This document shows positions 23,531 to 60,883 of a stretch of 64,000 nucleotides of DNA, one piece after another. The DNA is from Sedimentisphaerales bacterium (GTDB lineage: Bacteria; Planctomycetota; Phycisphaerae; Sedimentisphaerales; SM23-30). Each line of letters opens with the position of its first letter. Positions within the stretch are counted from its first letter, which is position 1. Position numbers and translations under genes: made by a program. A model generated the notes under the pieces. The model saw nothing but the letters and a program-made list of their open reading frames with translations. It was not told the origin of the DNA and made no database searches. Location: assembly GCA_963663965.2 (NCBI GenBank), contig CAXXFK010000031.1, positions 1-64,000 on the forward strand, written 5' to 3'.

Positions 23531-23746
23531 GATAAAACTCTTTTTCCTCATGAAGCAATAGCATGATTCGATTGATGCGTCCAAGACGATGAAGTGACTA
23601 TGTCATCAGCGCCGAACAAAACCAAAGGCAGACCGCGCTAAGTGATACAATATTCGTTTGAGGCAGCGTTTTTTTCCCGGGTTGTAATAATGATCGCATC
23701 ATTCAGTCCGGTTAAAGAAACCGGAAATAGATGAGCAAGAAGAAGG

Positions 23747-42083: not shown

Positions 42084-42613
42084 TTAAGGTTTGTGCATAT
42101 ATTGTTCGATCAGGAGTGACATCTGTTCAGGGGTGACGCAGGGTGGACATCCTCATTGATCATAACAACAGGCGCCAGTCCACAGGTGCCGAGGCAACGG
42201 GTCTGTTCCAGGGTAAACATGCCATCCCGTGTGGTTTCGCCAAAGGTGATGCCGAGTTCTTCTACGACCTTGTTAGCAACCTTGTCAGCACCTTTAACGT
42301 AACAGGCGGTTCCCATACAGATATTAATGGTGTATTTACCACGAGGTTTGAGGCGGAAGAAATGATAGAAAGTGGCGACCCCTGATACTTCGGCAGTGGG
42401 GATTTGCATCAATTGAGCCACGGCGTCGATCTGTTGGCGGCTGATATAGCCGGAGTGTTCCTGAACTTTGTGCAGGACGGAAATGAGCTGACTTTTAGGA
42501 TGAGGCAGTTTTGCGGTTTTTTCGATAAACGCAACCACTTCCGGCGGCAGCAGGGCCTTTTGGGTTTCAAGATGATCTTTCAAGCTGGTACAGCAACAGG
42601 ATTTCGTTTCCAT
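42084..42613 (-). CDS. hydC: [FeFe]-hydrogenase gamma subunit (HydC/NuoE-like); probable 1-bp deletion near 42143
   Basis: VATFYHFF, CMGTAC and CLGTC...APVVMIN. The shifted frame gives a plausible ending VTPEQMSLLIEQY. Confidence 0.9.
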
Positions 42614-44382: not shown

Positions 44383-44393
44383 AGTAACCTCGG

Positions 44394-46310
44394 TTATTTT
44401 TTCAAGACAGCATGGAAGCGACAGACCTGATGGCAGCGTCCACATTTGATGCATTTTTCCTGGTCAATGATATGCGTTTCTTTGGGTCTGCCTGCGATAC
44501 AATTGACCGGGCAGTTCCGGGCGCAGAGGGTGCAACCCACGCAGGTTTCCGGATCAATCTGGTAACGGACCAGTGCGGTACATTTACACGCCGGGCAGTG
44601 TTTGTCATGGACGTGCGCCTCGTATTCCTGGCGGAAATATTTGATGGTGCTGAGGACGGGATTGGGAGCCGCCCGGCCCAGGCCGCACAACGACGTTTTC
44701 TGCACCAGTCGAGCCAGTCGTTCGAGCGTATCGATATCATCACTTTTGGCATTGCCGGAGGCGATCCGTTCAAGGATTTCCAGCATTCGGGTGGTCCCTT
44801 CGCGACAGGGCGTGCATTTGCCACAGGACTCAGACTGGGTAAACTGGAGGAAGAACTTGGCGATATCGACCATGCAATCCTCTTCATCCATAACAATCAT
44901 ACCGCCTGAGCCCATAATCGAGCCAACCGCCTGAAGGGAGTCAAAATCGACTTTGGTGTCGATAAACTCGGCAGGAATACAGCCGCCGGCCGGTCCGCCG
45001 GTCTGGATGGCTTTGAGTTTTTTGCCGCCGGGTATCCCACCGCCAACGTCAAAAACGATTTCGCGGAGAGTGGTTCCCATGGGGACCTCGATCAGGCCGG
45101 TATGGTTGATTTTTCCGGCGAGAGCAAAGACCTTGGTGCCACCGCTGTTATCGGTGCCGATTCCGGCAAACCATTCGGGACCATATTGACCGATGACCGG
45201 GATATTGGCCCAGGTTTCAACGTTGTTGATTACCGTGGGACAACCCCAGAGGCCCTTTTGGGTGGGGAAAGGCGGGCGGATACGGGGCTGGCCACGTTTG
45301 CCTTCAATCGAGTGGATGAGGGCTGTTTCTTCGCCACAGACAAACGCACCGGCGCCGAGACGGATTTCGAGATCGAAACTGAAATCGGAGCCCAAAATAT
45401 TATTACCGAGTAATTGGTGTTTTCGAGCCAGATCAATGGCGTTCTGGATGCGATTGATCGCCATGGGGTATTCTGCCCGGATGTATAAATATCCTTGTGA
45501 AGCTCCAATGGCAAAGGCGCCGATCGTCATGCCTTCGACAATGTTGAACGGATCGCCTTCCAGCATACTGCGATCCATAAATGCTCCAGGATCGCCTTCG
45601 TCCGCATTACAAATTACATATTTTTGTTCGGCTTCAACTTGTGCAGCGTTCTGCCACTTCAAGCCGGTGGGGTATCCACCACCGCCACGCCCCCGGAGTT
45701 TTGAGGCTATAATAGTATCGATAACGTCACGGGGATTATTCTTATCCAGAATTGACGCAAGGGCTTCGTAGCCGCCGGCACAGGTGTAGCCGAAAATACA
45801 TTCCGGATTAACGATCCCACTATTCCTGAGCGCGATACGTGTCTGGCGCCGGAAAAAGGCGACATCACCATATTTTTCGTAAAATCGTTGCCCAAATGGA
45901 AATGCCTGAGTTTCCTTCAGTGGAATGGTGGTAACATCCTCATCCGGAGGCTGCAACAGGTTTTCATTCAGGGGGTTTCGCTTCATGATGTGGCGAGTGA
46001 AGATTTTGTGCACCAGTTCGCGGTCAACCTTTTGATATTTGACGGGCGGTTCATCGGGAAACTGAATGCTGACAATGGGTTCACAACTGCAGCGTCCGGT
46101 GCATCCTACCTGTCGTAACAAGATATCCTGCCGGTCCGATGATTCGATATGTTTTTCCAGTTCATCAAAAACCGCACGAGCCCCAGCGGCATTTTCACAA
46201 GTAGCAGAACCTACCTGGATTTGAATCTGGTCGGGGGATTGTCGCGCGGTGCAATGCTGGCTGGCTTTTTGAAGGAACTCGCGATAACGGGTCATGATTG
46301 GTGAAGACAT
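44394..46310 (-). CDS. hydB: [FeFe]-hydrogenase beta subunit (HydB/NuoF-like, FMN/NADH)
   Basis: RGRGGGG, NADEGDPGAFMDR, GAFVCGEETAL, CGKCTPCREG, C-terminal 2x4Fe-4S and an N-terminal thioredoxin-like 2Fe-2S domain. Confidence 0.95.
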   Translation of the reverse strand: MSSPIMTRYREFLQKASQHCTARQSPDQIQIQVGSATCENAAGARAVFDELEKHIESSDRQDILLRQVGCTGRCSCEPIVSIQFPDEPPVKYQKVDRELVHKIFTRHIMKRNPLNENLLQPPDEDVTTIPLKETQAFPFGQRFYEKYGDVAFFRRQTRIALRNSGIVNPECIFGYTCAGGYEALASILDKNNPRDVIDTIIASKLRGRGGGGYPTGLKWQNAAQVEAEQKYVICNADEGDPGAFMDRSMLEGDPFNIVEGMTIGAFAIGASQGYLYIRAEYPMAINRIQNAIDLARKHQLLGNNILGSDFSFDLEIRLGAGAFVCGEETALIHSIEGKRGQPRIRPPFPTQKGLWGCPTVINNVETWANIPVIGQYGPEWFAGIGTDNSGGTKVFALAGKINHTGLIEVPMGTTLREIVFDVGGGIPGGKKLKAIQTGGPAGGCIPAEFIDTKVDFDSLQAVGSIMGSGGMIVMDEEDCMVDIAKFFLQFTQSESCGKCTPCREGTTRMLEILERIASGNAKSDDIDTLERLARLVQKTSLCGLGRAAPNPVLSTIKYFRQEYEAHVHDKHCPACKCTALVRYQIDPETCVGCTLCARNCPVNCIAGRPKETHIIDQEKCIKCGRCHQVCRFHAVLKK

Positions 46311-46742
46311 AGTAATATCCTACTTGCACAATACAATTTAGTCGTCCCATGGGGAATCTGGGAACCGTAATGGTAAAATCTCTCCGTTAAGAGGTATCCG
46401 CCAAACTTCGGCGAATCTTTAGTCGTAATGATTAAGATTTAAACAAATATCAGTGATTCATTTTGCCCCGAAATACAGGTGTTCTTAGCAGGGCAACAGA
46501 AACGAAGCAAGCATATAAACAATCGGCTCTGACTGATAAACTATAAGAATTTAGGCATACATAATGTAAAAATCAAATAGTAAATTGAATTTAACTTAAA
46601 TAATTAGCTGTACTTAACGTTTAACTGATATAATTAAATGTGTTTATTTTCACTATTATCGTATCCAACAGGCAAATTAAACCATAACATATTACAGTAT
46701 AATTCATTATGTAAATGTCAGGTTATAACAAGTTAGTAGTTC

Positions 46743-47423
46743 ATGCTTAAAATTAATAAATTAAATAAATCGTATGGCGATACCTCTTCCACCGATTATC
46801 AACAGGTTTTGTGTGGAGTCAATTTTGAGTTGATGACACGAGGAACTGTTGCGATCATGGGGCCATCCGGCTGTGGAAAGAGTACTTTACTAAATATTAT
46901 CGGCTGCCTGGACCGACCAGATAGCGGGTCGGTAATGCTAAACGATGTGGAACTGACCCGATTGAACGAACAAGAAATGGCCAGGATTCGTAATGAATCG
47001 ATCGGTTTCGTTTTTCAAATGCACCATCTGCTACCGCAATGCAGTGTATTGGAGAATATTTTGCTACCCGTGCTGGCCGGCAGGGTAAAACAGGTGTCTG
47101 GTGCAAGAGTTGACAGGGCATTACATCTGCTGGAACGTGTTGGTATGACGGACTATCAGAATAAGCGGCCAGGTGAGCTTTCGGGCGGACAGTGCCAGAG
47201 AACGGCTTTAGTCAGAGCCTTGATCAATCAGCCCAGATTACTGCTGGCGGATGAACCCACCGGTTCACTAGATCAGGCCAATGCTGAAACCTTAATGGAA
47301 TTATTATTGGAATTGAATCGTGAAGAAGGGACGAGTTTATTGGTGGTTACCCACGCAGAATCATTGGCCAGACACATGAATGATATCTTTCTACTCGAGA
47401 ATGGACAATTAAAATCGGCATGA
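46743..47423 (+). CDS. ABC transporter ATP-binding protein (LolD/MacB family)
   Basis: GPSGCGKST, LSGGQ and LLADEPTGSLD. Confidence 0.95.
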   Translation: MLKINKLNKSYGDTSSTDYQQVLCGVNFELMTRGTVAIMGPSGCGKSTLLNIIGCLDRPDSGSVMLNDVELTRLNEQEMARIRNESIGFVFQMHHLLPQCSVLENILLPVLAGRVKQVSGARVDRALHLLERVGMTDYQNKRPGELSGGQCQRTALVRALINQPRLLLADEPTGSLDQANAETLMELLLELNREEGTSLLVVTHAESLARHMNDIFLLENGQLKSA

Positions 47424-50400
47424 CCCTCTGGAAACTGATAAGGCAATCACTTTTCCATTACTGGCGTCCCAATCTGGGTGTCATGCTGGGAGTGGCTTTT
47501 TGTTCCGCAGTACTGGTCGGGGCATTGATGGTGGGTGATACTGTCCGAAGTACACTGAAACGGATGGTGCTGGAGCGCCTTGGTGATACCCAACTGGCTT
47601 TGGCAGGACAAGGCCGTTATGTTCGCAGTGAGTTAGCCCAGGATCTGGCGGAGTCCTTAAATGTAAAGGTTGCAGGAATCCTACAAACAGGCGGCATCGC
47701 TATTGAACCCACGCGTCAACTGCGCCTGAACCGCGTGAATGTTTATGGTGTTGACAAGGCGTTCTGGGCGATGGGATTAGAAAAGCAGGCAGTGGAGTTA
47801 GACAGTGACGAAGCTGCTATCAATGCTGTGTTTGCGCAACAACTGGGTGTCAATCCTGGTGATGACATTATTTTGAGAGTGGACAAATCTGGATTGCTAC
47901 CCCGGGAGATCCCATTCGCGGGAAAAGAAGACCAGACCGCAGCCATGCGATTACGGATAAAATGTATTCTGACAAACTCGCAGATGGGGCGATTTGGATT
48001 AAAAAATAATCAGGATGCTGTTTACAACCTGTTTGTTTCCCTTGATAGATTACAAGAAAAATCAGAGCTTCAGGGCAAAGCCAATATTATTCTAGCGGGA
48101 GAACCTGAAAAGCCGGTTGACCTGAACAGCGCCAATGAGAAATTAAGGAGATGCCTGCGCCCGGATGATCTGGAACTGAAGTTTAAAGTCCTTACAAAGG
48201 ATACGGTTCAGATACAGAGCGGGCGAGTATTTCTGGATCATATTGTTGTCGAAAACATCAAAAAGACTATACCCGAATCGTCAGGTATTCTGGCTTATTT
48301 TGTCAATTCCATTATCAGCGCCAATCATTCCACACCCTATTCGATGATTGCCGGAATTGATCATGACATGTGCCAGGATCTGGGTATCACCCTTGAACCT
48401 GATGATATAGTGGTAAGTCGCTGGCTGGCAGATGACTTGAAGGTTGAGACAGGAGATCCCATTCGCCTGAGTTACTGGGTATTGTCAGAGGATGGCAGTG
48501 GTCTGGTGGAGCAAAGTCACGAATTCAAGGTGGCCGGTATTATTACTCAGGCCGGCGACCGGGATATGATGCCGGATATGCCGGGTTTATCCGATGCCGG
48601 GAATTGCCGGGAATGGAAAGCTGGAATTCCAATCGATTTTGGCCGTATCCGTGCTGAAGATGAGGCTTATTGGGAAACCTATCGAGGCACCCCCAAGGCC
48701 CTTATCAGCCTGGAAACCGCTCAGAAGATATGGGGAAACCGATGGGGGCGGCTCACTGAAATACGTATTAAGGGGAATGATATCAACAAATTCTCGAAAA
48801 AGGTTCTTGGCGAAATCAATCCAGGAGAGCTTGGACTGCAATTCAGAGATGTCAGGGGGCCGGCGTTAGCCGGAGCATCCGGACAAACCGATTTTGGACA
48901 GCTGTTTCTGGGTATGAGTATGTTTTTAATCGGATCGGCCCTGATATTACCAGCAATGCTATTTGCCTTAACGGTTCGCGGACGGAACAAACAGATCGCC
49001 CTGCTCAGGATTATCGGCTTTGAAACCGGAACTGTCCGACAGATCATCCTGGTTGAAGCCCTGATTCTGGTTCTAGCCGGGACAGGTCTTGGACTATTAT
49101 TGGCGGGGGGGTATGCCGGAATCATTACTGCTACCCTGAATTCAAATTGGCTGGCAGTAACCGGTACGAGCGAATTGCGTCTATTTATTTCGCCACAATC
49201 AATGATCGGTGGTAGTCTGGCCAGCGTTTTAATGGGGATGGGCAGTGTATGGCTGGCATTAAGACGTGATTTTAAACGGCGCGATCTGGATATGTTACAC
49301 GGCAGAGTGGCTTATCAAGTTAAATCTTCCCGATGGAAGAAGTGGACTGGATTAATTCTAACTGGACTGGCAATTACCACGATGTTATATTCCGTTATTT
49401 CGGCAAAGGATGCTACGGAAATATTTTTCATGAGCGGCAGTCTGCTGCTGGCAGGCGGCATATTTGTGTTTTCGTGGCAGTTATCTAAAACGAATACCAC
49501 AAAACCGAACTCAATATTCAGTATGGGGCAGTTAATCTCGCGCGGCTTGCAGCGGACACCCGGACGGATTCAGGCTGTCGCTGTAATTGTTGCCTGCGGA
49601 GTTTTTATGGTGGTTGCCGTTGGATCCAGCCAAAAAAATCCATTGAAAAACTCAGAAGCGCGCAGTTCAGGAACAGGGGGTTATGCCTTACTGGCTCAGA
49701 CTACGATTCCGATATCCGTGGATCTTGACAGTCAAGAGGCCATTACCCGTTTCGCACTTGATCCAGAATTAATGCGGGATGTATCGATTCTATCCGTGCG
49801 GGTACATGAAGGTGATAATGCCGGATGCCTGAATCTGAATAAGCCGGTGAATCCGGCAATCCTGGGTATTTCGGTGGTTGAATTGGTCAAAAATAAACCA
49901 TTTACCATTGTAAAAACTGAGAAAGGGCTGAAAGCCGACTGGCAAATTCTGGAAGGGGAAGGAGCGGTTACCCCGGTAATAACTGATCAGAGCGCGATTC
50001 TCTGGTCACTGGGAAAAAAACTGGGCGACCGGATACCGTATCCTGATCAGCGTGGGGGGCAGTGTGAGCTTGAATTGGCGGGTGGATTGAATAATTCGAT
50101 TTTGCAAGGATATCTTATTATTTCGGAAGAACGTTTCAAGGAACTGTTCCCGGAAGACAGCGGATATCGGTTCTTTTTAATCGACTGTCAGCCAGATAAG
50201 ATACAGGCTTTAGAAACCATGCTGCAACGTTCACTGGCGGATGTTGGTATTGACATAGAAAGAAGTGCCGATCGATTAGGACGTCTTTATGCTTTAGAAA
50301 ACACCTATATGACAATATTTATGCAATTGGGTGGATTGGGCATGATCCTGGGAACTGTCGGAATGGCTGTGGTTGTTTTCCGTAATGTGATGGAGCGCCG

Positions 50401-50683
50401 CAGCGAACTGGCATTATTGAAGGCGGTTGGATTCACTTCGAAGAAGATTACGGCCATGCTGATTCACGAGCACAGGCTGGCATTTGGTTATGGAGTGGGA
50501 CTGGGAGCCGTATCGGCTTTGATCGCCGTATTACCGGGGATGATCGAATGGGGAAGTGGATTTCCGTGGCGGTCGATTATAACAATTCTTGTTATTATTT
50601 TAGTTTGTGGTATAATCTGGATCATGGTGGCGACCCATCTGGCATTACGCGGCCGATTGGTGGGTGCATTACGAGATGAATGA
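47420..50683 (+). CDS. FtsX/MacB-type ABC permease, duplicated domain, 1087 aa
   Basis: Two TM clusters with large periplasmic loops; IALLRIIG and ERRSELALLKAVG motifs; ATGA overlap with the ATPase. Confidence 0.9.
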   Translation: MTLWKLIRQSLFHYWRPNLGVMLGVAFCSAVLVGALMVGDTVRSTLKRMVLERLGDTQLALAGQGRYVRSELAQDLAESLNVKVAGILQTGGIAIEPTRQLRLNRVNVYGVDKAFWAMGLEKQAVELDSDEAAINAVFAQQLGVNPGDDIILRVDKSGLLPREIPFAGKEDQTAAMRLRIKCILTNSQMGRFGLKNNQDAVYNLFVSLDRLQEKSELQGKANIILAGEPEKPVDLNSANEKLRRCLRPDDLELKFKVLTKDTVQIQSGRVFLDHIVVENIKKTIPESSGILAYFVNSIISANHSTPYSMIAGIDHDMCQDLGITLEPDDIVVSRWLADDLKVETGDPIRLSYWVLSEDGSGLVEQSHEFKVAGIITQAGDRDMMPDMPGLSDAGNCREWKAGIPIDFGRIRAEDEAYWETYRGTPKALISLETAQKIWGNRWGRLTEIRIKGNDINKFSKKVLGEINPGELGLQFRDVRGPALAGASGQTDFGQLFLGMSMFLIGSALILPAMLFALTVRGRNKQIALLRIIGFETGTVRQIILVEALILVLAGTGLGLLLAGGYAGIITATLNSNWLAVTGTSELRLFISPQSMIGGSLASVLMGMGSVWLALRRDFKRRDLDMLHGRVAYQVKSSRWKKWTGLILTGLAITTMLYSVISAKDATEIFFMSGSLLLAGGIFVFSWQLSKTNTTKPNSIFSMGQLISRGLQRTPGRIQAVAVIVACGVFMVVAVGSSQKNPLKNSEARSSGTGGYALLAQTTIPISVDLDSQEAITRFALDPELMRDVSILSVRVHEGDNAGCLNLNKPVNPAILGISVVELVKNKPFTIVKTEKGLKADWQILEGEGAVTPVITDQSAILWSLGKKLGDRIPYPDQRGGQCELELAGGLNNSILQGYLIISEERFKELFPEDSGYRFFLIDCQPDKIQALETMLQRSLADVGIDIERSADRLGRLYALENTYMTIFMQLGGLGMILGTVGMAVVVFRNVMERRSELALLKAVGFTSKKITAMLIHEHRLAFGYGVGLGAVSALIAVLPGMIEWGSGFPWRSIITILVIILVCGIIWIMVATHLALRGRLVGALRDE

Positions 50684-50787
50684 GGAGAAACCATTGACGA
50701 AATGCAATGGTTTTTTATATAGTAATCTGTATTCATATCCGCTTGAGGCGGATGATTTTTTATGATATCTATGACTTCTGATCTCCT

Positions 50788-52200
50788 ATGAATCGACAAA
50801 ACATCGCTATTCTAATTGCCTTTGGGCTACTAACGGCGGGCTATATAACGCTGGATAGATGGGTTCTGTCTGTACCAGTTAAGTTGGAGATCAGAGAGCC
50901 AGGCGCCGATGGAATACCGGAAGGCGCTTTTGTCGAATCCGGAGAAGAGGCCTGGGAATTTAAGGGGGAATTAACCAAGGGCGATGGGAAGGCGTCCGAT
51001 ATACTAGAAAGTTGGAGTATGTTTCGGGGCGACGATTGTCAGATGTATTACGATAATTCAGCAATTGACCTGGCCCGGGAGTGGCCTGAAAACGGTCCAC
51101 CGGTTATCTGGGATATTCCGGTTGGCGATGGTTATGCTGGGGCGGCAATACGTCAAGGCAGGGTGTATTTACTGGATTATGATGAGAAAAATCAGGGGGA
51201 TGTAATCCGGTGTTTATCGCTTGATGATGGTCAAGAAATCTGGCGCTATTTTTATTCGGTCAAGGTCAAGCGGGATCATGGCATGAGCCGGACCGTACCG
51301 GCAGTAACAGATGAGTATGTTGTGACGCTTGGACCCCGAGCCCAGGTGGTCTGTTTGAAGGCGGAAACCGGCGAGTATGTCTGGCATATCGATCTGGTGA
51401 GCGCTTACGGCACCGAAGTCCCTTTATGGCACGCGGCCCAGTGTCCGGTAATCGAAGATGGCCGGGCAATTATAGCGCCGGCTGGACCCAAAGGCTTGAT
51501 GATTGCGGTGGAGTGTTCTTCAGGAGACATTGTGTGGACGGCGGCCAATCCGGATAACTGGGAGATGACCCATACCTCCATATTGCCGGTTAAGATCAAC
51601 GATCAGGCGATGTATGTCTATTGCGGCGGCGGGGGTGTGGCAGGGGTGGCCAAAGAGGATGGACATCTTTTATGGAAAAATACCGATTGGAAAATGCGTA
51701 CTAATGTACCCTCACCGCTCTACTTGGGGGAAAGCCGGTTTTATTTATGTGCCGGATATAACAAGGGAAGCATGACCATGGATGTAAAGTGGGAAGGTGA
51801 CCGCTGGCAAGCAGAAACGGTTAACCAGTTCCCGGTAAAGGTATTCGGAACCGTGCAACACAGTCCGGTGTATTACCAGGGCCATCTTTATGGAATCCGT
51901 GAAAAAGGCAAGCAATTGATATGCCTGGATCGAAATGGTGCGATCGTCTGGGAAAGCGGCAGCGCTCATACCTTTGGGGATGGACCGGTTCTGCTGGCAA
52001 ATGGATTAATTTATATTCTGGATGATGATGGCACCCTGTTTATGATAGAGGCCTCGCAGGAAGGCTATCGAGAACTGGGCCAGGCGCAGGTATTTAACGG
52101 TCATGATGCCTGGGGACCGATGGCCATGGTGGCCGGCAGATTGATATTGCGGGATTTCGATGAGATGAAGTGTCTGGATATGAGGCAAAATACGAATTGA
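50788..52200 (+). CDS. Membrane-anchored PQQ-like (BamB-like) beta-propeller protein
   Basis: N-terminal TM helix, WSMFRG, and repeated ..G...W propeller blades. Confidence 0.85.
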   Translation: MNRQNIAILIAFGLLTAGYITLDRWVLSVPVKLEIREPGADGIPEGAFVESGEEAWEFKGELTKGDGKASDILESWSMFRGDDCQMYYDNSAIDLAREWPENGPPVIWDIPVGDGYAGAAIRQGRVYLLDYDEKNQGDVIRCLSLDDGQEIWRYFYSVKVKRDHGMSRTVPAVTDEYVVTLGPRAQVVCLKAETGEYVWHIDLVSAYGTEVPLWHAAQCPVIEDGRAIIAPAGPKGLMIAVECSSGDIVWTAANPDNWEMTHTSILPVKINDQAMYVYCGGGGVAGVAKEDGHLLWKNTDWKMRTNVPSPLYLGESRFYLCAGYNKGSMTMDVKWEGDRWQAETVNQFPVKVFGTVQHSPVYYQGHLYGIREKGKQLICLDRNGAIVWESGSAHTFGDGPVLLANGLIYILDDDGTLFMIEASQEGYRELGQAQVFNGHDAWGPMAMVAGRLILRDFDEMKCLDMRQNTN

Positions 52201-52233
52201 CAAGCTGCTGACAGCCATTTTAATATTAACAAC

Positions 52234-53253
52234 ATGCAAAACACAAAAACACAACCCGTTATTATTACCATCCTGTTGGTGGCTGTGGGAGTGGGTGTTT
52301 ACTCTGCTATCACATTGGATCCCTCGGGAAGTAAAGGGAATCGTCTGGGAAACTCGTTTGAATATGATTTATCGGAAGACCGGAAAATCGCTGCGGAACT
52401 TTATGGTTTTCATCAGATAAATGCGCTAAAGGATGAACGATTTAAATGGGCGGGTGGACTGGCAATCGATCATAACAACCTTATATATATCGCTGGCAAG
52501 GAATCGATTCTGATACTGGACCGAGAATTGAAAATTTCTCGTTCACTGAAAGTTGAGAGCGGGATTCAGGCATTGACTACTGCTGAGGATGGTTCCATCT
52601 TTACCGCCGATCAAAACAGGATTCGGATTTATGGCAGGGATGGGGCATTGATACGACAGTGGCCAATAGAAGGGGATAACACCTACCTGACTTCGATCAC
52701 GGTCGGTGAGAATGATGTATTCGTTGCCGATAAAGGGCAACGAGTGGTTTGGCGATATCAGAAATCGGGTGAATTCGTCAACGAGATCGGGCGCCGGGAT
52801 GATGCGCGTAACATACCCGGCTTCAGCATTCCCAGTCCATATTTTGAAGTCGCGATTGCCGGAGATGGATTATTGAGGGTTACCAATCCGGGATCACACT
52901 GGATTGTGGCGTATACATTTGATGGCGACCGGGAATTCGCCTGGGGGGAGAGCGGCCGGTCGATAGAGGGATTCTGCGGATGTTGTAATCCATCCCATTT
53001 CGCGATTTTTCCGGATGGGCGTTTTGTGACCAGCGAGAAAGGGATTACCCGGATCAAGGTGTATAACGCGGAGGGGAAATTTGAATCGGTGGTGGCGGGT
53101 CCTGCTGAATTTATGGATCATGACGGGTTGGTCAGTGAGTTGAAAGGCGAAGCGGACCGGGTGGCGCTCGAGGTGGGGGTTACCAATGATGGAGAAGTGG
53201 TTGTGCTGGATCCATTGGTGGGTGAAGTGAGGATTTTTGCCGAGAAAAAATAG
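52234..53253 (+). CDS. Membrane-anchored NHL-repeat beta-propeller protein with FCGCCNP motif
   Basis: N-terminal TM helix, NHL-like blades and GFCGCCNPSHF. Confidence 0.8.
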   Translation: MQNTKTQPVIITILLVAVGVGVYSAITLDPSGSKGNRLGNSFEYDLSEDRKIAAELYGFHQINALKDERFKWAGGLAIDHNNLIYIAGKESILILDRELKISRSLKVESGIQALTTAEDGSIFTADQNRIRIYGRDGALIRQWPIEGDNTYLTSITVGENDVFVADKGQRVVWRYQKSGEFVNEIGRRDDARNIPGFSIPSPYFEVAIAGDGLLRVTNPGSHWIVAYTFDGDREFAWGESGRSIEGFCGCCNPSHFAIFPDGRFVTSEKGITRIKVYNAEGKFESVVAGPAEFMDHDGLVSELKGEADRVALEVGVTNDGEVVVLDPLVGEVRIFAEKK

Positions 53254-53303
53254 TATGCTAAAATAGGGTTTCGCAATAAGCGAAATTTTTAGAGAGAATT
53301 GCC

Positions 53304-53879
53304 ATGAATCTAAAAGAGACAAAACCAATTATTGATCGCCGAGCCTGGTTAAAGACCATGGTTCGGAGCGGCTGTTTTGTGGGGCTGGCCGGATTAGGCT
53401 GGCGCGCGACCAGTATGGCAGGTTCCGATCAACTGGTCTGGCAGATCGATCCATTGAAATGCATTTCCTGTGGCAATTGCGCAACCTACTGCGTATTGAA
53501 AGAGTCAGCAGTAAAATGTGTGCACAATCATGAAATGTGCGGCTATTGCAATCTTTGTACCGGTTATTATAAATCAGAACCGCAGGAACTGGATACGGCG
53601 GCAGAGAATCAGATGTGCCCGACCGGCGCGATCATCCGCAGATTTGTAGAAAAACCGTATTTTGAATATAACATTGATGAGGCTCTCTGCATTGGTTGCG
53701 GCAAATGTGTCAAGGGCTGCAATGCATTTGGAAATGGTTCATTATTTTTACAAGTGAGACATGATCGTTGTCTGAACTGTAACCAATGCGCGATCGCGGA
53801 GTCTTGTCCGGCGGATGCTTTTCGGCGGGTACCGGCTCACAATCCTTATATCAAGAAAGGATTCGACAAGACGGAATGA
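53304..53879 (+). CDS. Tat-exported polyferredoxin (NapG/MauM-like)
   Basis: DRRAWLK Tat motif; four CxxCxxC-type motifs plus CP motifs. Confidence 0.85.
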   Translation: MNLKETKPIIDRRAWLKTMVRSGCFVGLAGLGWRATSMAGSDQLVWQIDPLKCISCGNCATYCVLKESAVKCVHNHEMCGYCNLCTGYYKSEPQELDTAAENQMCPTGAIIRRFVEKPYFEYNIDEALCIGCGKCVKGCNAFGNGSLFLQVRHDRCLNCNQCAIAESCPADAFRRVPAHNPYIKKGFDKTE

Positions 53880-55174
53880 AAAAGCGATTGGTCCTGTTAT
53901 TGAGCCTGATATTGCTGAGCATCCTTTTCAGCGGGCTGTTCGCCGTGCAGAATTTTCCACCACCGGAATTTGAATCGGATTATCAAATGCCGATTCTGAC
54001 ATTGATGGAGCAGGGTCGGGCCAGTGTCAGCTGGGCGGATGTCGTGATTATGGCCGTGGCGTTGGCAATCACCAGCTGGCTGGTATTGAAAAAACGTTCT
54101 CGACAGGGAATCTGGCTGGTGATGATATTTTCGCTGGTTTACTTTGGATTCTGGAAAAAAGGATGTATCTGTCCCATCGGAGCCATTCAGAATATGGCGT
54201 TGGGCCTGTTTAGTGACGGATACGCGGTCCCCCTTACGGTGATTATTATTTTTTTGTTGCCGCTGGTATTTGCCCTGTTTTCGGGACGGGTGTTTTGCGC
54301 CGGAGTCTGTCCGTTGGGCGCGATCCAGGATGTGGTTGCGTTTTTCCCGATCCAGATTCCGATGTGGCTGGAAAAGGTCTTGCAGGCCATCGCGTGGTTG
54401 TATCTAACCCTGGCCATTCTGTTGGCGGCGATGGGCAGTGGATTTATAATTTGCCGTTATGATCCATTTGTTCCCTTCTTTCGCATGTCTGGCAGTTTTC
54501 AGATCTTATTGCTGGGGGGGGCATTGCTGGTTGTCGGTTTATTTGTGGCCAGGCCCTATTGCCGGTTTTTGTGCCCCTATGGTGTATTACTTGGCTGGCT
54601 GTCGAAAGTATCCAGACGCCATTTAACCATCACTCCCAGAGATTGTATTCAGTGCCGCCTGTGTGAGGACAGTTGTCCATTTAACGCTATCGAAAAACCG
54701 CTTAATTATTCATCGTCCCAGGTATCGGCCAGAGCGCGGATACGATTGATTCTGGCAGTCCTGTCAGTGCCTGTTCTGGCGTTGCTGCTGGGGTGGGCGG
54801 GACGCGGCCTTTCGGGCAAGCTGTCACAGAGTCATTACTGGGTCAGGCTGGCTCAAGAGTATCGTTTGGAAGAAATGGGGGTGGTCACTGAGCCATCCGA
54901 TATGACGGACGCATTTCGAACCACTGGATGGACGCGCGATCAGCTTTATGAGAAGGCAGAAACCATCCGTCAGGGATTTGACCGGGGGTGCCGTTGGGCT
55001 GGAATATTGCTTGGAATCGCCCTGGGGATACGACTGGTACGGATGCAGGTTTACGACCGGCATGATGATTACCGGGCGGAAGCGGGGCGTTGTTTATCGT
55101 GTGGACGATGTCTGGAGTATTGTCCGGTGGGCCGGGCTGATGAAACTGTGGTGTTTCGAACTTGTAATCCATGA
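53876..55174 (+). CDS. Membrane 4Fe-4S protein (NapH/MauN/YccM-like)
   Basis: Multiple TM helices, CICP, CAGVCP, CRFLCP and two CxxCxxCxxxCP motifs; ATGA overlap with the upstream ferredoxin. Confidence 0.88.
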   Translation: MKKRLVLLLSLILLSILFSGLFAVQNFPPPEFESDYQMPILTLMEQGRASVSWADVVIMAVALAITSWLVLKKRSRQGIWLVMIFSLVYFGFWKKGCICPIGAIQNMALGLFSDGYAVPLTVIIIFLLPLVFALFSGRVFCAGVCPLGAIQDVVAFFPIQIPMWLEKVLQAIAWLYLTLAILLAAMGSGFIICRYDPFVPFFRMSGSFQILLLGGALLVVGLFVARPYCRFLCPYGVLLGWLSKVSRRHLTITPRDCIQCRLCEDSCPFNAIEKPLNYSSSQVSARARIRLILAVLSVPVLALLLGWAGRGLSGKLSQSHYWVRLAQEYRLEEMGVVTEPSDMTDAFRTTGWTRDQLYEKAETIRQGFDRGCRWAGILLGIALGIRLVRMQVYDRHDDYRAEAGRCLSCGRCLEYCPVGRADETVVFRTCNP

Positions 55175-55202
55175 ATACCCATAGAGAGAGACGGATATTG
55201 CT

Positions 55203-56975
55203 ATGACTGATAATCAAGAGGAAAATAAACAGGACCGTGGTCTCTGGTATCAGGTCTGTTTGAACCTGGCGATTGTTGCCGGGGTTCTGATGATTGGGGC
55301 CCTTTTTGTGCTGGCGCGCGACTGGAGTCCAACGATGACCGCCAGTACTATCGATTCGGAGGTAATTGAGTCGCTGCGCAAGGAACTGGCTGATCATCCT
55401 GATAATATGGCGTTGCGGGAGAGGGTGCGGTCTTATGACCGGGAGTTGCGGGAGGTGTTTTTTACGCAACAACAACGGGCCAAGCGGGCTGGCATATTTC
55501 TGGTATTTTGCGGGGGCATACTGGCTTTGACAATGAAATATGTGATCGATCAGAATACCGCCCTGCCGATGCCGCAGGGCAAGCATGATTCCACCCGTTA
55601 TGGGTTTAAAAACGCCATGGCCGGACACGCCTTTGTGCTGGTGGCAGTGAGTGTGGTGGTATTTATGGCGGTGCGCCCGAATCCCGCGCCGACTCTGCCC
55701 GGGGCCGAATCTACTGTTAGCAGTGCCCCGGGAGATGATACCATTAGTCAAGAAGAACAGCCTGTTGCCAAGCTGACCCAGGTGGTCTGGCCGGATAAGG
55801 AGCAGTTCAAGAAAAACTGGTATCGATTCAGAGGGCCGGGAGGTTCGGGGATATCGCCGTGGGATAATGTTCCACTCACGTGGAATATCGAAAGTGGTGA
55901 GAATATTTTATGGAAACTCCCCATTGAAATGCCGGGGAATAACTCGCCAGTGATCTGGGAAAATCTGCTTTTTTTCAGTTGCGCCGATGAAACGCAGCGA
56001 ATTGTTTATGCGGTCGATTGTGTCAAGGGTGACTATCTCTGGCAAACGGCTATTGTCGTTCCCGGAGGGCCGGAGGAAGCGCCGGAGGTTATGGAAGAGA
56101 CCGGCTTTGCCGCGCCTACGTGTGCGACGGATGATCAACGAGTCTATGCCATGTTTGCCAACGGTGATGTGGCGGCAGTGGGACATGACGGAGCCATCGT
56201 CTGGGCGAAGAACCTGGGAATCCCTGAGAGTACCTATGGTCATTCGGCTTCGCTGGAATTATATCAGGGATTACTGCTGATTCAATTCGATCAGGGATAT
56301 GAAGATGAGGAGAAATCAAAGGTATTTGCCCTGGATGTGTTAACGGGCAAAGTGATCTGGTCACATACCAGGCCGGTAGCCAATCAGTGGTCCAGTCCGA
56401 TTGTGGCCCATACCGGGGGGCGGGATCAGTTTATTACAATATCCAATCCGTGGGCGATTGCCTACGAGCCTTTGAAGGGCGAGGTGCTCTGGCAATCCAA
56501 ATGTCTGGCGGGTGATGTGGCGCCCTCGCCAGTCTGCGCGAATGACCTGGTATATCTGATTACTCCTTATGAGGCTGTCAGGGCTTATAAAACCGATGGT
56601 CAGGGTGATGTCACCGAGACAAAGCTGGCCTGGGAAGGGATGGATAATATCGGTGATACCTGTTCACCTCTGACAAATGGCGTCTATCTCTATCTATTGT
56701 ATGGTATGGATCTGGTGTGTTATAAAGCGGATAACGGTGAAGTGCTGTGGACACATTCTTTTGATAATGAATATACTTCATCCCCATCTTTAGTGGGCGA
56801 CAAACTACTGTTAATGGATATAGAAGGTGAGGTGGCCATGGTTAAGGTGGGGGATGAATTTGCCCTGGATCATACTGGTCATCTGGGTGAACCGGTATTT
56901 ACCTGTCCAGCATTTGCGGATGGGAAAATTTTTGTGCGTTGCGATAAACAAATCATAGCCATAGGAGTGAAATGA
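55203..56975 (+). CDS. PQQ-like beta-propeller protein with three N-terminal TM helices
   Basis: TM segments, then WYRFRGPGGSG and propeller blades with SSP motifs. Confidence 0.85.
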   Translation: MTDNQEENKQDRGLWYQVCLNLAIVAGVLMIGALFVLARDWSPTMTASTIDSEVIESLRKELADHPDNMALRERVRSYDRELREVFFTQQQRAKRAGIFLVFCGGILALTMKYVIDQNTALPMPQGKHDSTRYGFKNAMAGHAFVLVAVSVVVFMAVRPNPAPTLPGAESTVSSAPGDDTISQEEQPVAKLTQVVWPDKEQFKKNWYRFRGPGGSGISPWDNVPLTWNIESGENILWKLPIEMPGNNSPVIWENLLFFSCADETQRIVYAVDCVKGDYLWQTAIVVPGGPEEAPEVMEETGFAAPTCATDDQRVYAMFANGDVAAVGHDGAIVWAKNLGIPESTYGHSASLELYQGLLLIQFDQGYEDEEKSKVFALDVLTGKVIWSHTRPVANQWSSPIVAHTGGRDQFITISNPWAIAYEPLKGEVLWQSKCLAGDVAPSPVCANDLVYLITPYEAVRAYKTDGQGDVTETKLAWEGMDNIGDTCSPLTNGVYLYLLYGMDLVCYKADNGEVLWTHSFDNEYTSSPSLVGDKLLLMDIEGEVAMVKVGDEFALDHTGHLGEPVFTCPAFADGKIFVRCDKQIIAIGVK

Positions 56976-59323
56976 GCGTAATCGATTTAAAGCCGGTAGA
57001 TCAGATACTTGACCAGATTGGCCGGGAACCCCATAAATTAATTCCGATATTGCAGGCGGTACAGACACAATATGGATACCTGCCTCAAGAGGCACTGGAA
57101 TCGATATGTGGGCGGACCACCATAACGCCGAGCCAAATAATGGGGGTCAGTACTTTTTACAGTCAATTTCGCTTTAAACCAGTCGGTCAGCACATTGTAC
57201 GCTTATGTAACGGTACGGCATGTCATGTTAAAGGCGCCGAAAAGGTATATCAGTCATTGCGACGCGTACTGGCGATTCCGGAGGGGGATGACACTGATCC
57301 GCAAGGTGTGTTTACAGTTGAGAAGGTGGCATGCCTGGGATGTTGTACTTTGGCTCCAGCTGTACAGATCGATGAAATTACTTATGGCCATCAGACCCCG
57401 GAATCAGTGGAGCGGATGCTAAGCGATTTTATGAATGCCAGCAAAAAAACCGGACGTGGAAGAAAGGGAATCGGTCTGACTCAGTTTGCAGGTCAGGATG
57501 GCGAGATTCGCATCGGCTTGGGTTCCTGTTGTCAGGCGCGCGGCAGTGGCCTATTACATCAATCCTTGTTACAATCCGTTGAGGATTTAAAGATTCGGGC
57601 GACCATCAAATCCGTGGGTTGCGTGGGTATGTGCCACCAAACTCCTCTGGTAGAAATTGTCAAACCGGATGGACGCAGTTTTCTTTACGCCCAAGTTGAA
57701 CCCAAGGATGCCAGGGGGATACTGGAACGGCATTTCGAACAGGATGATCTGATTATACGCTGGGGGCACAAGGCAGCCAACTGGCTGGACAGCCTGATCG
57801 AGGCCCGGCCCCATGAGCCCGTGACGCGCTATTCGATTGATGTCCGTGATAAGCCCGTTAAAGCATTTCTGGATAAGCAGATCAATATCGCCACGGAACA
57901 TTGCGGCAATATCAGTCCGGTTGATTTGTCTGAATATTTGCATAAGGGTGGCTTTAACGCGTTGAAAAAGTGTTTAACAGGCATGGATCCAGATCAGGTG
58001 ATTGAGTTTATCCGGGAAAGCGGATTACGGGGCCGGGGCGGGGCCGGCTTTTTGACGGGTCAAAAATGGCGACTGGTACAGCTGACGAAAGATGATCTGA
58101 AATACATTGTCTGCAACGGCGATGAAGGGGATCCGGGCGCATTTATGGACCGGATGCTACTGGAATCGTATCCCTTGCGGGTATTGGAGGGTATGATCAT
58201 TGCGGCGTGGGCAGTGGGGGCACATCAAGGATATCTCTATATCCGCGCGGAATATCCATTGGCAGTCAAGCGGGTGCGTGAAGCGCTGGCTGTTTGTTAT
58301 GAACATGGGTATCTAGGCAAAGATATTCTGGGCAGTGGATTTGATCTGGATCTACAGATCATGGAGGGGGCCGGCGCATTTGTCTGTGGTGAAGAGACGG
58401 CCCTGCTGGCATCAATTGAAGGTCAGCGCGGGATGCCCCGATTCCGGCCTCCCTATCCGGCAGAAAAGGGATTGTTTGGCAAGCCTACGCTGGTGAATAA
58501 TGTTGAAACCTTTTGTACGGTTTCCTGGATTATCCGTCAGGGTGCGGAAGCGTTTGGCCGGTTGGGAACATCGAGCAGTGCCGGCGCCAAAGTATTTGCG
58601 CTGGCAGGCAAAGTGGCCCGTGGCGGTTTAATCGAAGTACCAATGGGAATAACAATCAAAGAGATTGTTGAAGAAATTGGAGGCGGCGTGGCCGATGGAC
58701 GTACATTTAAAGCAGTACAGATCGGGGGGCCTTCTGGAGGATGTATTCCCGCTTCAATGTCACATCTGGGAGTCGATTATGAAGAGTTGGCACACGCGGG
58801 AGCGATTATGGGATCGGGAGGTCTGGTGGTTCTGGATGATACGGATTGTATGGTGGATATTGCCCGGTATTTTCTGGAATTTACTCAGGATCAATCCTGC
58901 GGTAAATGCACGCCCTGCCGGATCGGAACCCGACGCATGCTAGAGATTCTGGAACGGTTATGTCAGGGGACAGCCAGCCGCTCTGATCTGGATGAGCTAA
59001 AAGAGTTGGCAATATCAATTAAGCGATCCAGTTTATGCGGACTGGGACAAACGGCCCCCAATCCGGTGTTATCAACCCTGGAATTTTTCGGTGATGAATA
59101 TGAAGCGCATCTTGAGGGGCGTTGTCCGGCAGGGAAATGCACAGCCCTGATTACCTATTCAATCAATGACCGCTGTATCGGCTGTACCTTATGCGCTCAG
59201 CATTGCCCTGTAAACGCAATTAAAATGAAACCTTATGAGCGCCATATCATCGATATCCGGACCTGTATCCGCTGTGGCGGATGTAAAACGATATGTCCGG
59301 TTGATGCCGTGGAGGTGAAATAG
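56972..59323 (+). CDS. NuoE-[2Fe-2S]-NuoF fusion (HydC-HydB-like diaphorase module)
   Basis: CNGTAC/CLGCC (NuoE), GSCC...GCVGMC, RGRGGAG, GDEGDPGAFMDR, CGKCTPC and C-terminal 2x4Fe-4S. Confidence 0.93.
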   Translation: MSVIDLKPVDQILDQIGREPHKLIPILQAVQTQYGYLPQEALESICGRTTITPSQIMGVSTFYSQFRFKPVGQHIVRLCNGTACHVKGAEKVYQSLRRVLAIPEGDDTDPQGVFTVEKVACLGCCTLAPAVQIDEITYGHQTPESVERMLSDFMNASKKTGRGRKGIGLTQFAGQDGEIRIGLGSCCQARGSGLLHQSLLQSVEDLKIRATIKSVGCVGMCHQTPLVEIVKPDGRSFLYAQVEPKDARGILERHFEQDDLIIRWGHKAANWLDSLIEARPHEPVTRYSIDVRDKPVKAFLDKQINIATEHCGNISPVDLSEYLHKGGFNALKKCLTGMDPDQVIEFIRESGLRGRGGAGFLTGQKWRLVQLTKDDLKYIVCNGDEGDPGAFMDRMLLESYPLRVLEGMIIAAWAVGAHQGYLYIRAEYPLAVKRVREALAVCYEHGYLGKDILGSGFDLDLQIMEGAGAFVCGEETALLASIEGQRGMPRFRPPYPAEKGLFGKPTLVNNVETFCTVSWIIRQGAEAFGRLGTSSSAGAKVFALAGKVARGGLIEVPMGITIKEIVEEIGGGVADGRTFKAVQIGGPSGGCIPASMSHLGVDYEELAHAGAIMGSGGLVVLDDTDCMVDIARYFLEFTQDQSCGKCTPCRIGTRRMLEILERLCQGTASRSDLDELKELAISIKRSSLCGLGQTAPNPVLSTLEFFGDEYEAHLEGRCPAGKCTALITYSINDRCIGCTLCAQHCPVNAIKMKPYERHIIDIRTCIRCGGCKTICPVDAVEVK

Positions 59324-60883
59324 ATGGTGCAGATAACCCTAGATGATCGAACAGTCACTATCGAAGCCGGGGCGACCATTCTGGATGCGGCCAGGAAGGC
59401 TGGAGTCCATATTCCAACACTCTGTTATCTGGAAGACTGTCAACCTCAAACCTCCTGTATGGTCTGTGTCGTTCGTTTGGAACCGGGCGGTAAACTAGTC
59501 CCGGCGTGCGCCTATCCGGTGAGCGATGGACTCCGGGTGAGCAGTGAAGTCGATGAGGTTTTAACCATCCGCAAACGCAATCTGGAACTCCTGTTGAGTG
59601 AACACCTGGGCGATTGTGAAGGGCCCTGTACCTCGGCCTGCCCCGCCGGTATGCAGATTCCGTTGATGATTCGACAGATTGCTACTGGTGATCTGGAAGG
59701 GGCAATTAAAACGATTAAACGAGATATTCCTTTACCGGCGATTTTAGGTCGAATCTGTCCGGCGCCTTGTGAGGGTATCTGCCGGCGGAAATATCACGAT
59801 GAGGCATTGGCTATCTGCCAACTGAAACGATTTGTCGCCGATTGGGATTTGGCTAATGAGCAGCCATATTTGCCAGAAATCCATGGCGATTCCGGTAAAA
59901 AGGTTGCAATAGTGGGTACCGGACCGGCCGGATTATCCGGAGCCTGGTTTTTACGGACCATGGGACATTCCTGTCAGGTTTTTGAAGAACAGGATCGTCC
60001 TGGCGGACGGCTTTATGAATCCGGAACTGACAGATTATCAGAAGAGACCGTACTGGCTGAAATCCGGGTCATTGAATCACTAGGTTGTTCCATACAGTTG
60101 AATACAAAAATTGGCAGAGACATCACATTAGAAAATTTACGAAGGCAGTATGATGCGGTTTTAATCGCCACAGGAGATGGACACCTGGATGGGCTGGTAT
60201 ACCATGATACAGGATTGAAGGTTGACATGAAAACCATGCAAACCAGCCTGGAAGGTGTATTCGCAGCAGGCAATGTGATACGCAAGGGACGAATCGCCAT
60301 TCGATCCATAGGCCAGGCTAAAAACGCAACCAGATCCATTGACAATTATCTGAGGGGTGATAAACAAGATGGCTTGAGAGAAGCGTTTACATGTCATATT
60401 GGGAAAATTCGAGATGAAGAAATCAGGACGTTTGCAGATGCAGCATCCCAAAGAGGAAGGGTATTGACAAAAGAACAAAAATACGAGGCATTGACCAAAG
60501 AACAAAGCGCCTGGGAGGCCCAGCGGTGTCTGAGATGCGATTGTCGAAAAGCGAGTGATTGCCGGTTACGCCAGGTATGCCAGGATTATGAGATTATGGC
60601 CCCTAAACTTAAAGATAACAGGCCAGCATTCGAACAAGCTATTCAAATAAACAGTAAAAATGCCCGTAAAGTGGTTTATGAAAAGGGTAAATGTATACGA
60701 TGCGGGCTATGTGTTCAGATTACAACTCGAGAGGAAGAGCGCTATGGCTTGTCCTTTACGGGTAGAGGATTTGAAGCGTTTATCGCCGTGCCGCTTGATC
60801 ATAGCTTGGATGAGGCGTTAACCCGTTCGGCCGAAGCTTGTGTAAGAGCCTGCCCGACTGCCGCGTTGGCATTTCTTGAATAG
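59324..60883 (+). CDS. NuoG-N-terminal [2Fe-2S] / GltD-NfnB-like FAD-Fe-S / ferredoxin fusion
   Basis: IPTLCY..SCMVC..C, PCTSACPAG..GRICPAPCE, VAIVGTGPAG, GVFAAGN, CLRCDC and CIRCGLC..CVRACP. Confidence 0.88.
   Translation: MVQITLDDRTVTIEAGATILDAARKAGVHIPTLCYLEDCQPQTSCMVCVVRLEPGGKLVPACAYPVSDGLRVSSEVDEVLTIRKRNLELLLSEHLGDCEGPCTSACPAGMQIPLMIRQIATGDLEGAIKTIKRDIPLPAILGRICPAPCEGICRRKYHDEALAICQLKRFVADWDLANEQPYLPEIHGDSGKKVAIVGTGPAGLSGAWFLRTMGHSCQVFEEQDRPGGRLYESGTDRLSEETVLAEIRVIESLGCSIQLNTKIGRDITLENLRRQYDAVLIATGDGHLDGLVYHDTGLKVDMKTMQTSLEGVFAAGNVIRKGRIAIRSIGQAKNATRSIDNYLRGDKQDGLREAFTCHIGKIRDEEIRTFADAASQRGRVLTKEQKYEALTKEQSAWEAQRCLRCDCRKASDCRLRQVCQDYEIMAPKLKDNRPAFEQAIQINSKNARKVVYEKGKCIRCGLCVQITTREEERYGLSFTGRGFEAFIAVPLDHSLDEALTRSAEACVRACPTAALAFLE

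Follow-up and report, generated by a model that had tools for sequence, protein, structure and literature searches.

A conserved seven-gene redox arm in Sedimentisphaerales that may wire a Bfu-type cytoplasmic module to periplasmic propellers

Positions 46743..60883 of the first 64,000 nucleotides of contig CAXXFK010000031.1 (Sedimentisphaerales bacterium, GCA_963663965.2; positions 1 to 64,000, the whole stretch being referred to here as the window) carry nine genes that form two modules, an ATP-binding cassette (ABC) transporter pair and a seven-gene redox arm at 50788-60883. The arm recurs in fixed order across several phyla, and its cytoplasmic end is a flavin and iron–sulfur (Fe-S) module of the Bfu family that lacks a block corresponding to the NADP(H)-binding domain of its closest relatives. 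We judge it evenly balanced whether the seven genes constitute an undescribed, all-Fe-S, quinone-independent conduit that delivers electrons outward to a periplasmic thiol/selenol site, as the anaerobic version of a pathway whose core is shared with other genomes; that their products form a physical complex and a wire is probable.

The nine open reading frames all lie on the + strand, at the limits given in an earlier note on this DNA, and their junctions bear out the tight coupling described there: ATPase/FtsX, ferredoxin/NapH-like and propeller B/NuoEF are joined by 4-nucleotide (nt) ATGA overlaps, the NuoEF/GltD-like junction is 0 nt, and the other gaps are 104, 33, 50 and 28 nt. The Pfam and NCBIfam calls agree with the domain identities proposed in the note (ABC_tran; two FtsX with MacB_PCD; PQQ_2 in two propellers; NHL; Fer4; Fer4_5; NuoE, NuoF and Fer4; Fer2_4, Fer4_20 and Pyr_redox_2), and among the nine whole proteins a named-equivalog cut-off in NCBIfam is reached only by the NuoE domain of the fusion. 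As the note had stated, none of the nine contains the CxxCH of a cytochrome and no terminal enzyme is recognisable, no such family occurring among the recurring neighbours of the loci studied below. Homologues of the window proteins are found in Sedimentisphaerales and other Planctomycetota. The features are as follows (PQQ, pyrroloquinoline quinone; FMN, flavin mononucleotide; aa, amino acids).

50788..52200, + strand: propeller A, N-anchored PQQ-like propeller; conserved R168, Q218-C219-P220, H262 and S264, near-invariant H164
52234..53253, + strand: N-anchored NHL propeller with invariant G-C-C-N-P (C250, C251); candidate redox-active terminal site
53304..53879, + strand: twin-arginine polyferredoxin, 191 aa; 16 invariant Cys (four predicted clusters) and near-invariant C72
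53876..55174, + strand: NapH-like (PF12801) polytopic membrane Fe-S protein; two CxxxCP and two [4Fe-4S] motifs split by a membrane hairpin
55203..56975, + strand: propeller B, three predicted transmembrane helices and a PQQ-like propeller; no conserved Cys or His
56972..59323, + strand: BfuC-BfuB fusion (NuoE, B5 domain, FMN, B1, B2 site, B3/B4); closest to NfnB/StnB
59324..60883, + strand: BfuA of NfnA/StnC type, NADP(H) domain deleted and no C-terminal extension, from the alignment to 9bov_A
46743..47423, + strand: LolD/MacB-type ABC ATPase, 226 aa; LolD 244 bits against a cut-off of 308; shared core
47420..50683, + strand: duplicated FtsX/MacB-type permease, 1087 aa; shared core, tracks the GT4 glycosyltransferase
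50684..50787, + strand: intergenic gap with two hairpin and U-run elements and a promoter-like site at 50694-50723, consensus matches only

Conservation of the arm was examined in 100 loci, 20 from genomes of the phylum and the best 80 of at least 581 from the genome collection, which the removal of two duplicates reduced to 98; the set is biased to close homologues, and the counts for each gene are limited to loci with enough flank. The loci span Planctomycetota, Verrucomicrobiota, Bacteroidota, KSB1 and Marinimicrobiota. The seven-gene arm is complete in 53/63 loci, every time in the window order, which is more than chance would give and confirms the co-conservation of the redox genes that the earlier note had predicted for other genomes. 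Individually, the NHL protein is present in 94/95 loci, the NapH-like protein in 84/85, propeller B in 73/75, propeller A in 76/85, the NuoE-F fusion in 67/71 and the GltD-like subunit in 61/68. Gaoshiqia sediminis A06 (L078) is a named carrier of the arm. Unrelated genes lie inside the operon at L078:16171-19778 and L070:3868-6031 and in L071 and L088; those of L078 look McrBC-type by eye. The literature search returned no description of the operon, or of the core and the alternative arm B introduced below, in keeping with the note, which knew of no characterised system of such composition; the supplements of PMC9304861 and PMC8238504 and the figures of PMC7306690 may bear on this novelty.

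The BfuBC core defines the Bfu family in the available parts of two accounts (PMC9304861, PMC11829005). Residues 178-782 of the window fusion match NfnB (9bov_B) with 694 bits, including its N- and C-terminal domains, and the fusion ranks NfnB above the hydrogenase HydB proteins and far above NuoF; its Cys motifs are conserved in 64 rows, and its NuoE domain scores over the cut-off. With an FMN domain, sites B1-B5 and the C1 [2Fe-2S] site of BfuC, it has the architecture of a Bfu protein, in which B2 and B5 would be occupied by Fe-S or Zn. In the partner subunit, BfuA residues 1-285 align to 3-287 of 9bov_A and 292-514 to 448-670, so that nothing in BfuA corresponds to NfnA residues 288-447; the last ~500 residues at the C terminus of NfnA are also missing. 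Judged from GltD architecture, the absent internal block (about 155-160 residues) would be the NADP(H)-binding domain, and BfuA homologues have 106-110 residues between the two flavin adenine dinucleotide (FAD) motifs wherever both motifs were found. Sites A1 and A2 are retained, in that the N-terminal [2Fe-2S] domain and the H-x-x-D-C ... C-x-x-C-x-C motifs align with those of NfnA/StnC. Because the NADP(H) domain is absent, the module is Bfu by architecture rather than an Nfn transhydrogenase. Some other protein must serve as its third partner, and the membrane arm appears the most plausible candidate. Together with the strong co-conservation, this loss upholds the note's proposal that a cytoplasmic module for NADH and ferredoxin is linked to periplasmic propellers by a conserved conduit not described before. 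In L019 and L020 the BfuA homologues are ~342 aa long and have no FAD motif, which suggests further reduction to a pure wire.

The nearest characterised relatives are BfuABC enzymes of Nfn type, Caldicellulosiruptor NfnABC (9bov) and Sporomusa StnABC (8oh5, 9n5u), which share the BfuB regions and the BfuC [2Fe-2S] site (PMC9304861, PMC11829005); the window BfuA further resembles NfnA/StnC in its GltD-like insertion and its N- and C-terminal cluster motifs. The window module differs in three respects: BfuC and BfuB form one polypeptide, the NADP(H) domain and C-terminal extension are gone, and its genes lie with those of a membrane conduit and of propellers in the periplasm. Among Bfu types bound to the membrane, the portions of PMC9304861 and PMC11829005 consulted name Mbh and Nuo, but not the window type.

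At the other end of the arm, the NHL propeller carries a vicinal Cys pair. The earlier note had described a CGCC motif: among the 96 loci with a match to F-x-G-C-C-N-P the Cys-Cys pair is invariant, but the residue before the Gly is C in 64, S in 29 and another residue in 3, and L026 and L028 read LCGCC. An alignment-based AlphaFold2 model (predicted local distance difference test, pLDDT, 92.5) gives an N-anchored NHL propeller fold and was used in place of the single-sequence model, which was unusable (pLDDT 42). A fold search with it returned generic NHL propellers only, Pfam and NCBIfam scans matched the subunit to no thiol-relay family, and a search for longer or fused NHL forms (607-2000 aa) gave none, which is weak evidence. 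A metagenome scan for TGA at the first Cys of the pair gave 33 pattern matches, 32 of which did not match NHL; the remaining one, L160, is a propeller A-NHL-ferredoxin operon in which an in-frame TGA (L160:2513-2515) is aligned to C250, the downstream sequence is fully conserved, and an 8-bp hairpin of unexceptional stability (z -1.61) follows ~20 nt on. In this one metagenome relative a selenocysteine (Sec)-Cys pair would thus replace Cys-Cys; the window gene itself encodes Cys. Selenocysteine usually marks a redox-catalytic residue, and vicinal Sec-Cys or Cys-Cys pairs are more typical of reductases. The arrangement recalls thioredoxin reductase, DsbD and ferredoxin:thioredoxin reductase, in which NAD(P)H or ferredoxin electrons reach a Cys/Sec pair, across the membrane in the case of DsbD; unlike these relays, the window system has an Fe-S carrier chain and places the pair on an NHL propeller. 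A term search of the main text of PMC2398784 gave no match for an NHL protein among marine selenoproteins.

Between these two ends lie the polyferredoxin and the NapH-like protein. The ferredoxin, with 5059 homologue clusters, is single-copy in 44/301 genomes of the phylum, and its twin-arginine pair is invariant in 36/36 sequences and present in at least 90% of 71 rows; it has no PDB homologue at 1e-8. In many loci a ~80-aa twin-arginine protein with four Cys lies between the NHL and ferredoxin genes (L056:9745-9993, L070:9781-10020). In the NapH-like protein, which has no meaningful PDB homologue, 15 Cys are invariant in 87-89 of 87-89 rows, including the extra residues C97, C99 and C193; if these lie on the periplasmic face, as we infer, they would complete a path across the membrane. 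The description of the two as a NapGH-like pair survives in its layout, but not as family membership: the ferredoxin scores 19.5 bits against the NapG/MauM cut-off of 269 (the best NapG E value among 71 members is 1.7e-6, and generic ferredoxin models rank above it), and the membrane protein 53.8 bits against 213 for NapH/MauN. Since the membrane protein carries PF12801 and two CxxxCP motifs, "NapH-like" holds in the broad sense. In the five genomes of Sedimentisphaerales searched for a menaquinone pathway, MqnA/D gave no match and MenD none over the cut-off (5/5), although UbiA-family and CcsA genes are present. NapH-like proteins are treated as modular conduits in the relevant portion of PMC8238504, and the window pair shares with NapGH, MauMN, NosGH and the conduits described there a PF12801 membrane Fe-S protein beside a twin-arginine four-cluster ferredoxin. 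It differs from them in its extra helices and three extra invariant Cys, in scores far below the family cut-offs, in the lack of an FMN-binding domain (Pfam scan of the conduit) and of a recognised reductase nearby (domain scans of the window found no NapA, NosZ or methylamine dehydrogenase), and in the inclusion of a cytoplasmic NADH module in the same block.

The two PQQ-like propellers share PQQ_2-type repeats with quinoprotein dehydrogenases and BamB, from which they differ in their inner-membrane anchors and in another set of conserved residues. Neither exceeds 26-27 bits with the quinoprotein models TIGR03075/TIGR04528, whose cut-offs are 480-650, and both fall far below the BamB cut-off, although their best labels are BamB. 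Propeller A matches BamB, designed propellers and one weak quinoprotein in PDB, and PQQ_2/BamB labels only in the ESM Atlas; its conserved residues would lie in the cavity, making it a candidate ligand- or metal-binding subunit. Propeller B is likely a scaffold. A search for pqqC gave no match, but the control genomes were equally without one, so that this negative carries no weight.

The ABC pair stands apart from this arm. Its LolCDE/MacB architecture (LolD-type ATPase, FtsX and MacB periplasmic domains) is present, and both proteins fall below the LolD and LolCE equivalog cut-offs; it is therefore a separate subfamily. FtsX lies directly 5' of the arm in 30/73 loci and the ATPase in 31/71, and of the 86/300 phylum genomes with FtsX, 49 hold only arm B, a different gene set. 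Because adjacency is the minority case and the pair occurs in arm-B-only genomes, it is not specific to the redox arm, and the claim that it is a dedicated part of the redox system is not borne out. The 104-nt gap behind FtsX fits two modules: it holds two hairpins with U-runs (z -2.95; 1/200 shuffles as stable) and a promoter-like site, so that a single nine-gene transcript is not assured, and 50684..50787 may be a boundary between the pair and the arm. The proposal of one operon would then apply to the tight, co-oriented seven-gene arm, from which the terminator- and promoter-like sites may split off the ABC pair. Predicted promoters and terminators are modestly above shuffled counts (33 vs 22.2 and 21 vs 13.1, respectively), Rfam has no match in 39000-64000, and no clear operator was seen in 46300-46760.

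What the arm shares with other genomes is a core of genes. Clustering of the neighbours in the 100 loci gave propellers, GT4, ferredoxin and prenyl genes as recurring families; a GT4 glycosyltransferase with a YCENC motif occurs in 33 loci and the propeller Prop11 in 31, beside extra propellers and pieces of a prenyl cluster. In the window genome GT4 (C3:39363) and Prop11 (C26:6475) are on other contigs, as is the prenyl cluster. In relatives without the redox arm, GT4, Prop11 and the ABC pair sit with arm B genes in 9/18 GT4 loci, GT4 lying apart in the other 9; the arm B loci of oxidase-bearing Planctomycetota are L133, L135, L136, L137, L138, L140-L142, L144 and L145.

Arm B: sodium:solute symporter and DUF3311, two PaaK-like ligases, aldehyde dehydrogenase (ALDH)-like protein, iron-type alcohol dehydrogenase (Fe-ADH), HemN-like radical SAM protein, unknown small proteins, CmlS/QhpG-like flavoprotein and thioesterase, with GT4, propellers and the ABC pair
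G000:C11:52352-59012 (= L101:6353-13013), - strand: five-gene prenyl cluster of dicluster ferredoxin, B12-type radical SAM protein, DUF116-polyprenyl synthase, prenyltransferase toroid and SHC-like cyclase

Six markers were profiled in 300 genomes of the phylum, with one query per family at a chosen threshold and the HemN-like protein as arm B marker; the counts are not phylogenetically independent, there being kin among the genomes. Ferredoxin was found in 43 genomes and NHL in 42 (40 common), FtsX and GT4 in 86 each (81 common), the prenyl-cluster ferredoxin in 75 and the HemN-like protein in 56. Among the 95 genomes with a core marker, 94 hold an arm, the redox arm being present in 43 and the arm B marker in 56; the two occur together in 5 vs 25 expected, and only one genome lacks both. 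Of the FtsX genomes, 34 have the redox arm alone, 49 have arm B alone, 3 have both and none is without an arm; the GT4 genomes likewise all have an arm (86/86). Each of five families (f1, f4, f17, f38, f62) includes the two arm types, and a quick GT4 tree of 51 rows shows at least 4 label changes ("A" labels being assigned by locus, not by whole genome). In 24 genomes chosen by arm type, the heme-copper oxidase COX1 was present in 1/12 with the redox arm only vs 12/12 with arm B only. The five genomes with both markers (G091, G123, G136, G178, G228) are candidates for oxygen-dependent switching.

The prenyl cluster is a frequent companion, not an obligatory member, of the tight core of FtsX and GT4 (and Prop11). 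Its ferredoxin occurs in 33/43 arm genomes vs 10.8 expected, on the same contig within 25 kb in 9/33. It is absent from the other 10/43, including the single-contig G284; G284 and G206 have the arm, ABC pair and GT4, and the DUF116 synthase was not found in either, in a search with no positive control. The SHC-like cyclase, which carries a DADD motif in the window genome, was found in G301 and G302 and not in the other 3/5 genomes from outside the phylum sample (G303-G305). Export of the SHC-like product by the ABC pair as an obligatory step was accordingly rejected. The cluster resembles the SHC-like class II terpenoid cyclase clusters of PMC7306690 and PMC12414744, which, in the sections seen, mention a polyprenyl synthase neighbour and an unknown product only, and not the GT4/ABC core, the redox arm or arm B; in publications the SHC-like clade has no demonstrated function. 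Some relatives have a SPASM-type radical SAM protein in place of the B12-type. In the arm-B genomes of L107-L117, a GcvH-like protein that keeps the Lys at the lipoyl position, a CobW-like GTPase and a cysteine desulfurase (IscS) lie beside the prenyl cluster, a set that suggests carrier-bound sulfur chemistry.

In the reading that we favour, NADH, probably with reduced ferredoxin as a second donor, would supply electrons to the BfuC-BfuB fusion and NADP-less BfuA, from which they would move to the clusters on the cytoplasmic side of the NapH-like protein. The electrons would then cross the membrane via the CxxxCP and C97/C99/C193 sites, reach the exported ferredoxin and arrive at the Cys-Cys (Sec-Cys) pair in the NHL protein; together with propeller A, this pair would carry out a periplasmic reduction. 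The most likely source of the substrate is the shared core. There the cytoplasmic GT4, Prop11 and the ABC pair of MacB/LolCDE type, frequently joined by the SHC-like prenyl/radical-SAM cluster, would produce and export a lipid or cofactor that is glycosylated and in many cases of prenyl origin. In aerobes this core is accompanied by the soluble arm B instead. What the sequences show directly is the genes with their order, conservation and motifs, the loss of the NADP domain, one variant of Sec type, the distribution of core and arms, and the oxidase split. Confidence in the remaining parts differs: a functional tie of the arm to the GT4/ABC core is probable, outward flow of electrons is slightly favoured, bifurcation or confurcation by the Bfu module has roughly even prospects, and the nature of the substrate is proposed with low confidence.

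Several points weigh against this reading. The direction is not fixed by sequence, and the Sec case is one locus of 33 pattern matches with an ordinary hairpin. Bifurcation needs movement of the C1 domain, according to the accessible text of PMC11829005, and fusion of BfuC to BfuB may restrict it. TatC was not found in the window assembly (94.6% complete); TatA is present there (G000:C28:645484) and TatC in 44/47 other ferredoxin-bearing genomes, which weakens the conclusion that the ferredoxin is cytoplasmic. No convincing copy of the small twin-arginine, four-Cys protein exists in the window genome. The prenyl/SHC-like cluster is dispensable. Lastly, the two arms share no obvious chemistry, and their mutual exclusion could simply follow the aerobe/anaerobe split.

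The strongest rival, possible though clearly the less likely, runs the same wire in reverse: the propellers would be periplasmic dehydrogenases of sugars, alcohols or aldehydes, their cofactor being not PQQ but a product that the GT4/ABC core makes and exports, and anaerobes without quinones and oxidases would use them to reduce NAD+ and ferredoxin. Characterised Bfu enzymes pass electrons from a third substrate to NAD+ and ferredoxin (PMC9304861, available portion), and in 172 genomes the PQQ alcohol dehydrogenase ExaA has a NapH-like protein as its partner (PMC8238504, likewise); arm B holds ADH- and ALDH-like enzymes and a symporter, and propeller A conserves His, Cys, Arg and Gln. The propeller motif W-P-x-[FW]-R-G-P is also commoner in core-bearing genomes (medians 5 and 8 vs 1; reversed-pattern controls 2, 1 and 1), but this count is a crude proxy that admits other codons and out-of-frame matches and reaches 24 in G030, which has no core marker. 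The quinoprotein scores of the propellers and the reductase-like character of the vicinal pair count against reversal.

It is rather improbable that the arm works on its own, either as a terminal reductase or electron sink of anaerobes (acting on sulfur species, metals or humics) or as a supply of reductant in the manner of DsbD, its link to the ABC, GT4 and prenyl genes reflecting shared regulation or gene clustering. The minority adjacency of the ABC pair, the terminator-like element between pair and arm, the placement of GT4, Prop11 and the prenyl cluster on other contigs of the window genome, and the lack of that cluster in some near-complete arm genomes would all fit. However, 43/45 arm-bearing genomes have a core marker, the two exceptions being fragmentary matches; core genes stand beside the arm in distant phyla (GT4 in 33/98 loci, Prop11 in 28/98); and the single core genome without either arm argues in the same direction. 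That a known system has merely been renamed, an NfnABC/Stn transhydrogenase beside an unrelated NapGH pair and BamB-like scaffolds, is very unlikely, because the best solved homologues (NfnA/NfnB, StnC/StnB) and the BamB labels are outweighed by the deleted NADP(H) domain, NapG, NapH and BamB scores far below cut-off, and a fixed order across phyla not expected of unrelated genes.

The outward conduit, if correct, would add to the Bfu family a form that crosses the membrane and serves the periplasm without quinones or cytochromes, and the Cys-Cys/Sec-Cys pair on an NHL propeller would be a candidate new redox site; the parts are of known kinds, and the terminal chemistry may prove categorically new. 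The core and arm pattern joins the SHC-like cyclase product, given as unknown in the portion of PMC12414744 consulted, the PQQ-like propellers of Planctomycetota and periplasmic redox in fermentative sediment bacteria. More speculatively, and unlikely in its full extent, the GT4 and ABC core with the SHC-like cluster could make and export a glycosylated cofactor or redox lipid for the "empty" PQQ-like propellers of the PVC superphylum and Bacteroidota; the operon would then be its anaerobic drive or recycling system, a bifurcating Bfu module wired without quinones or hemes to the Sec/Cys-Cys propeller, and aerobes would use the arm with coenzyme A ligase, ALDH, ADH, flavin monooxygenase and radical SAM proteins. 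The arm in Gaoshiqia sediminis A06 and the core with arm B in aerobic Planctomycetota provide a defined gene set for experiments.

Other genes of the window surround the operon. A divergent trimeric [FeFe]-hydrogenase (42110-46310, - strand; genes in the order HydB-HydA-HydC, with HydA exceeding the group A6 cut-off) is separated from it by a common AT-rich intergenic region of 432 nt, and at 39906-41948 (+ strand) a PhnD-like solute-binding domain, with CxC and two further Cys, is fused to a PQQ-like propeller; both were set aside as parts of the system, neither exceeding the threshold in any of the 98 loci. Further away, all on the - strand, lie a 643-aa twin-arginine protein with no Pfam match (37811-39742), an ApbE flavin transferase (31828-32892), a FecR-like protein (25867-28094) whose neighbour looks like an ECF sigma factor by eye, a CotH/lamin-tail protein (18053-23584) and an alpha-2-macroglobulin-like protein (10566-13682).

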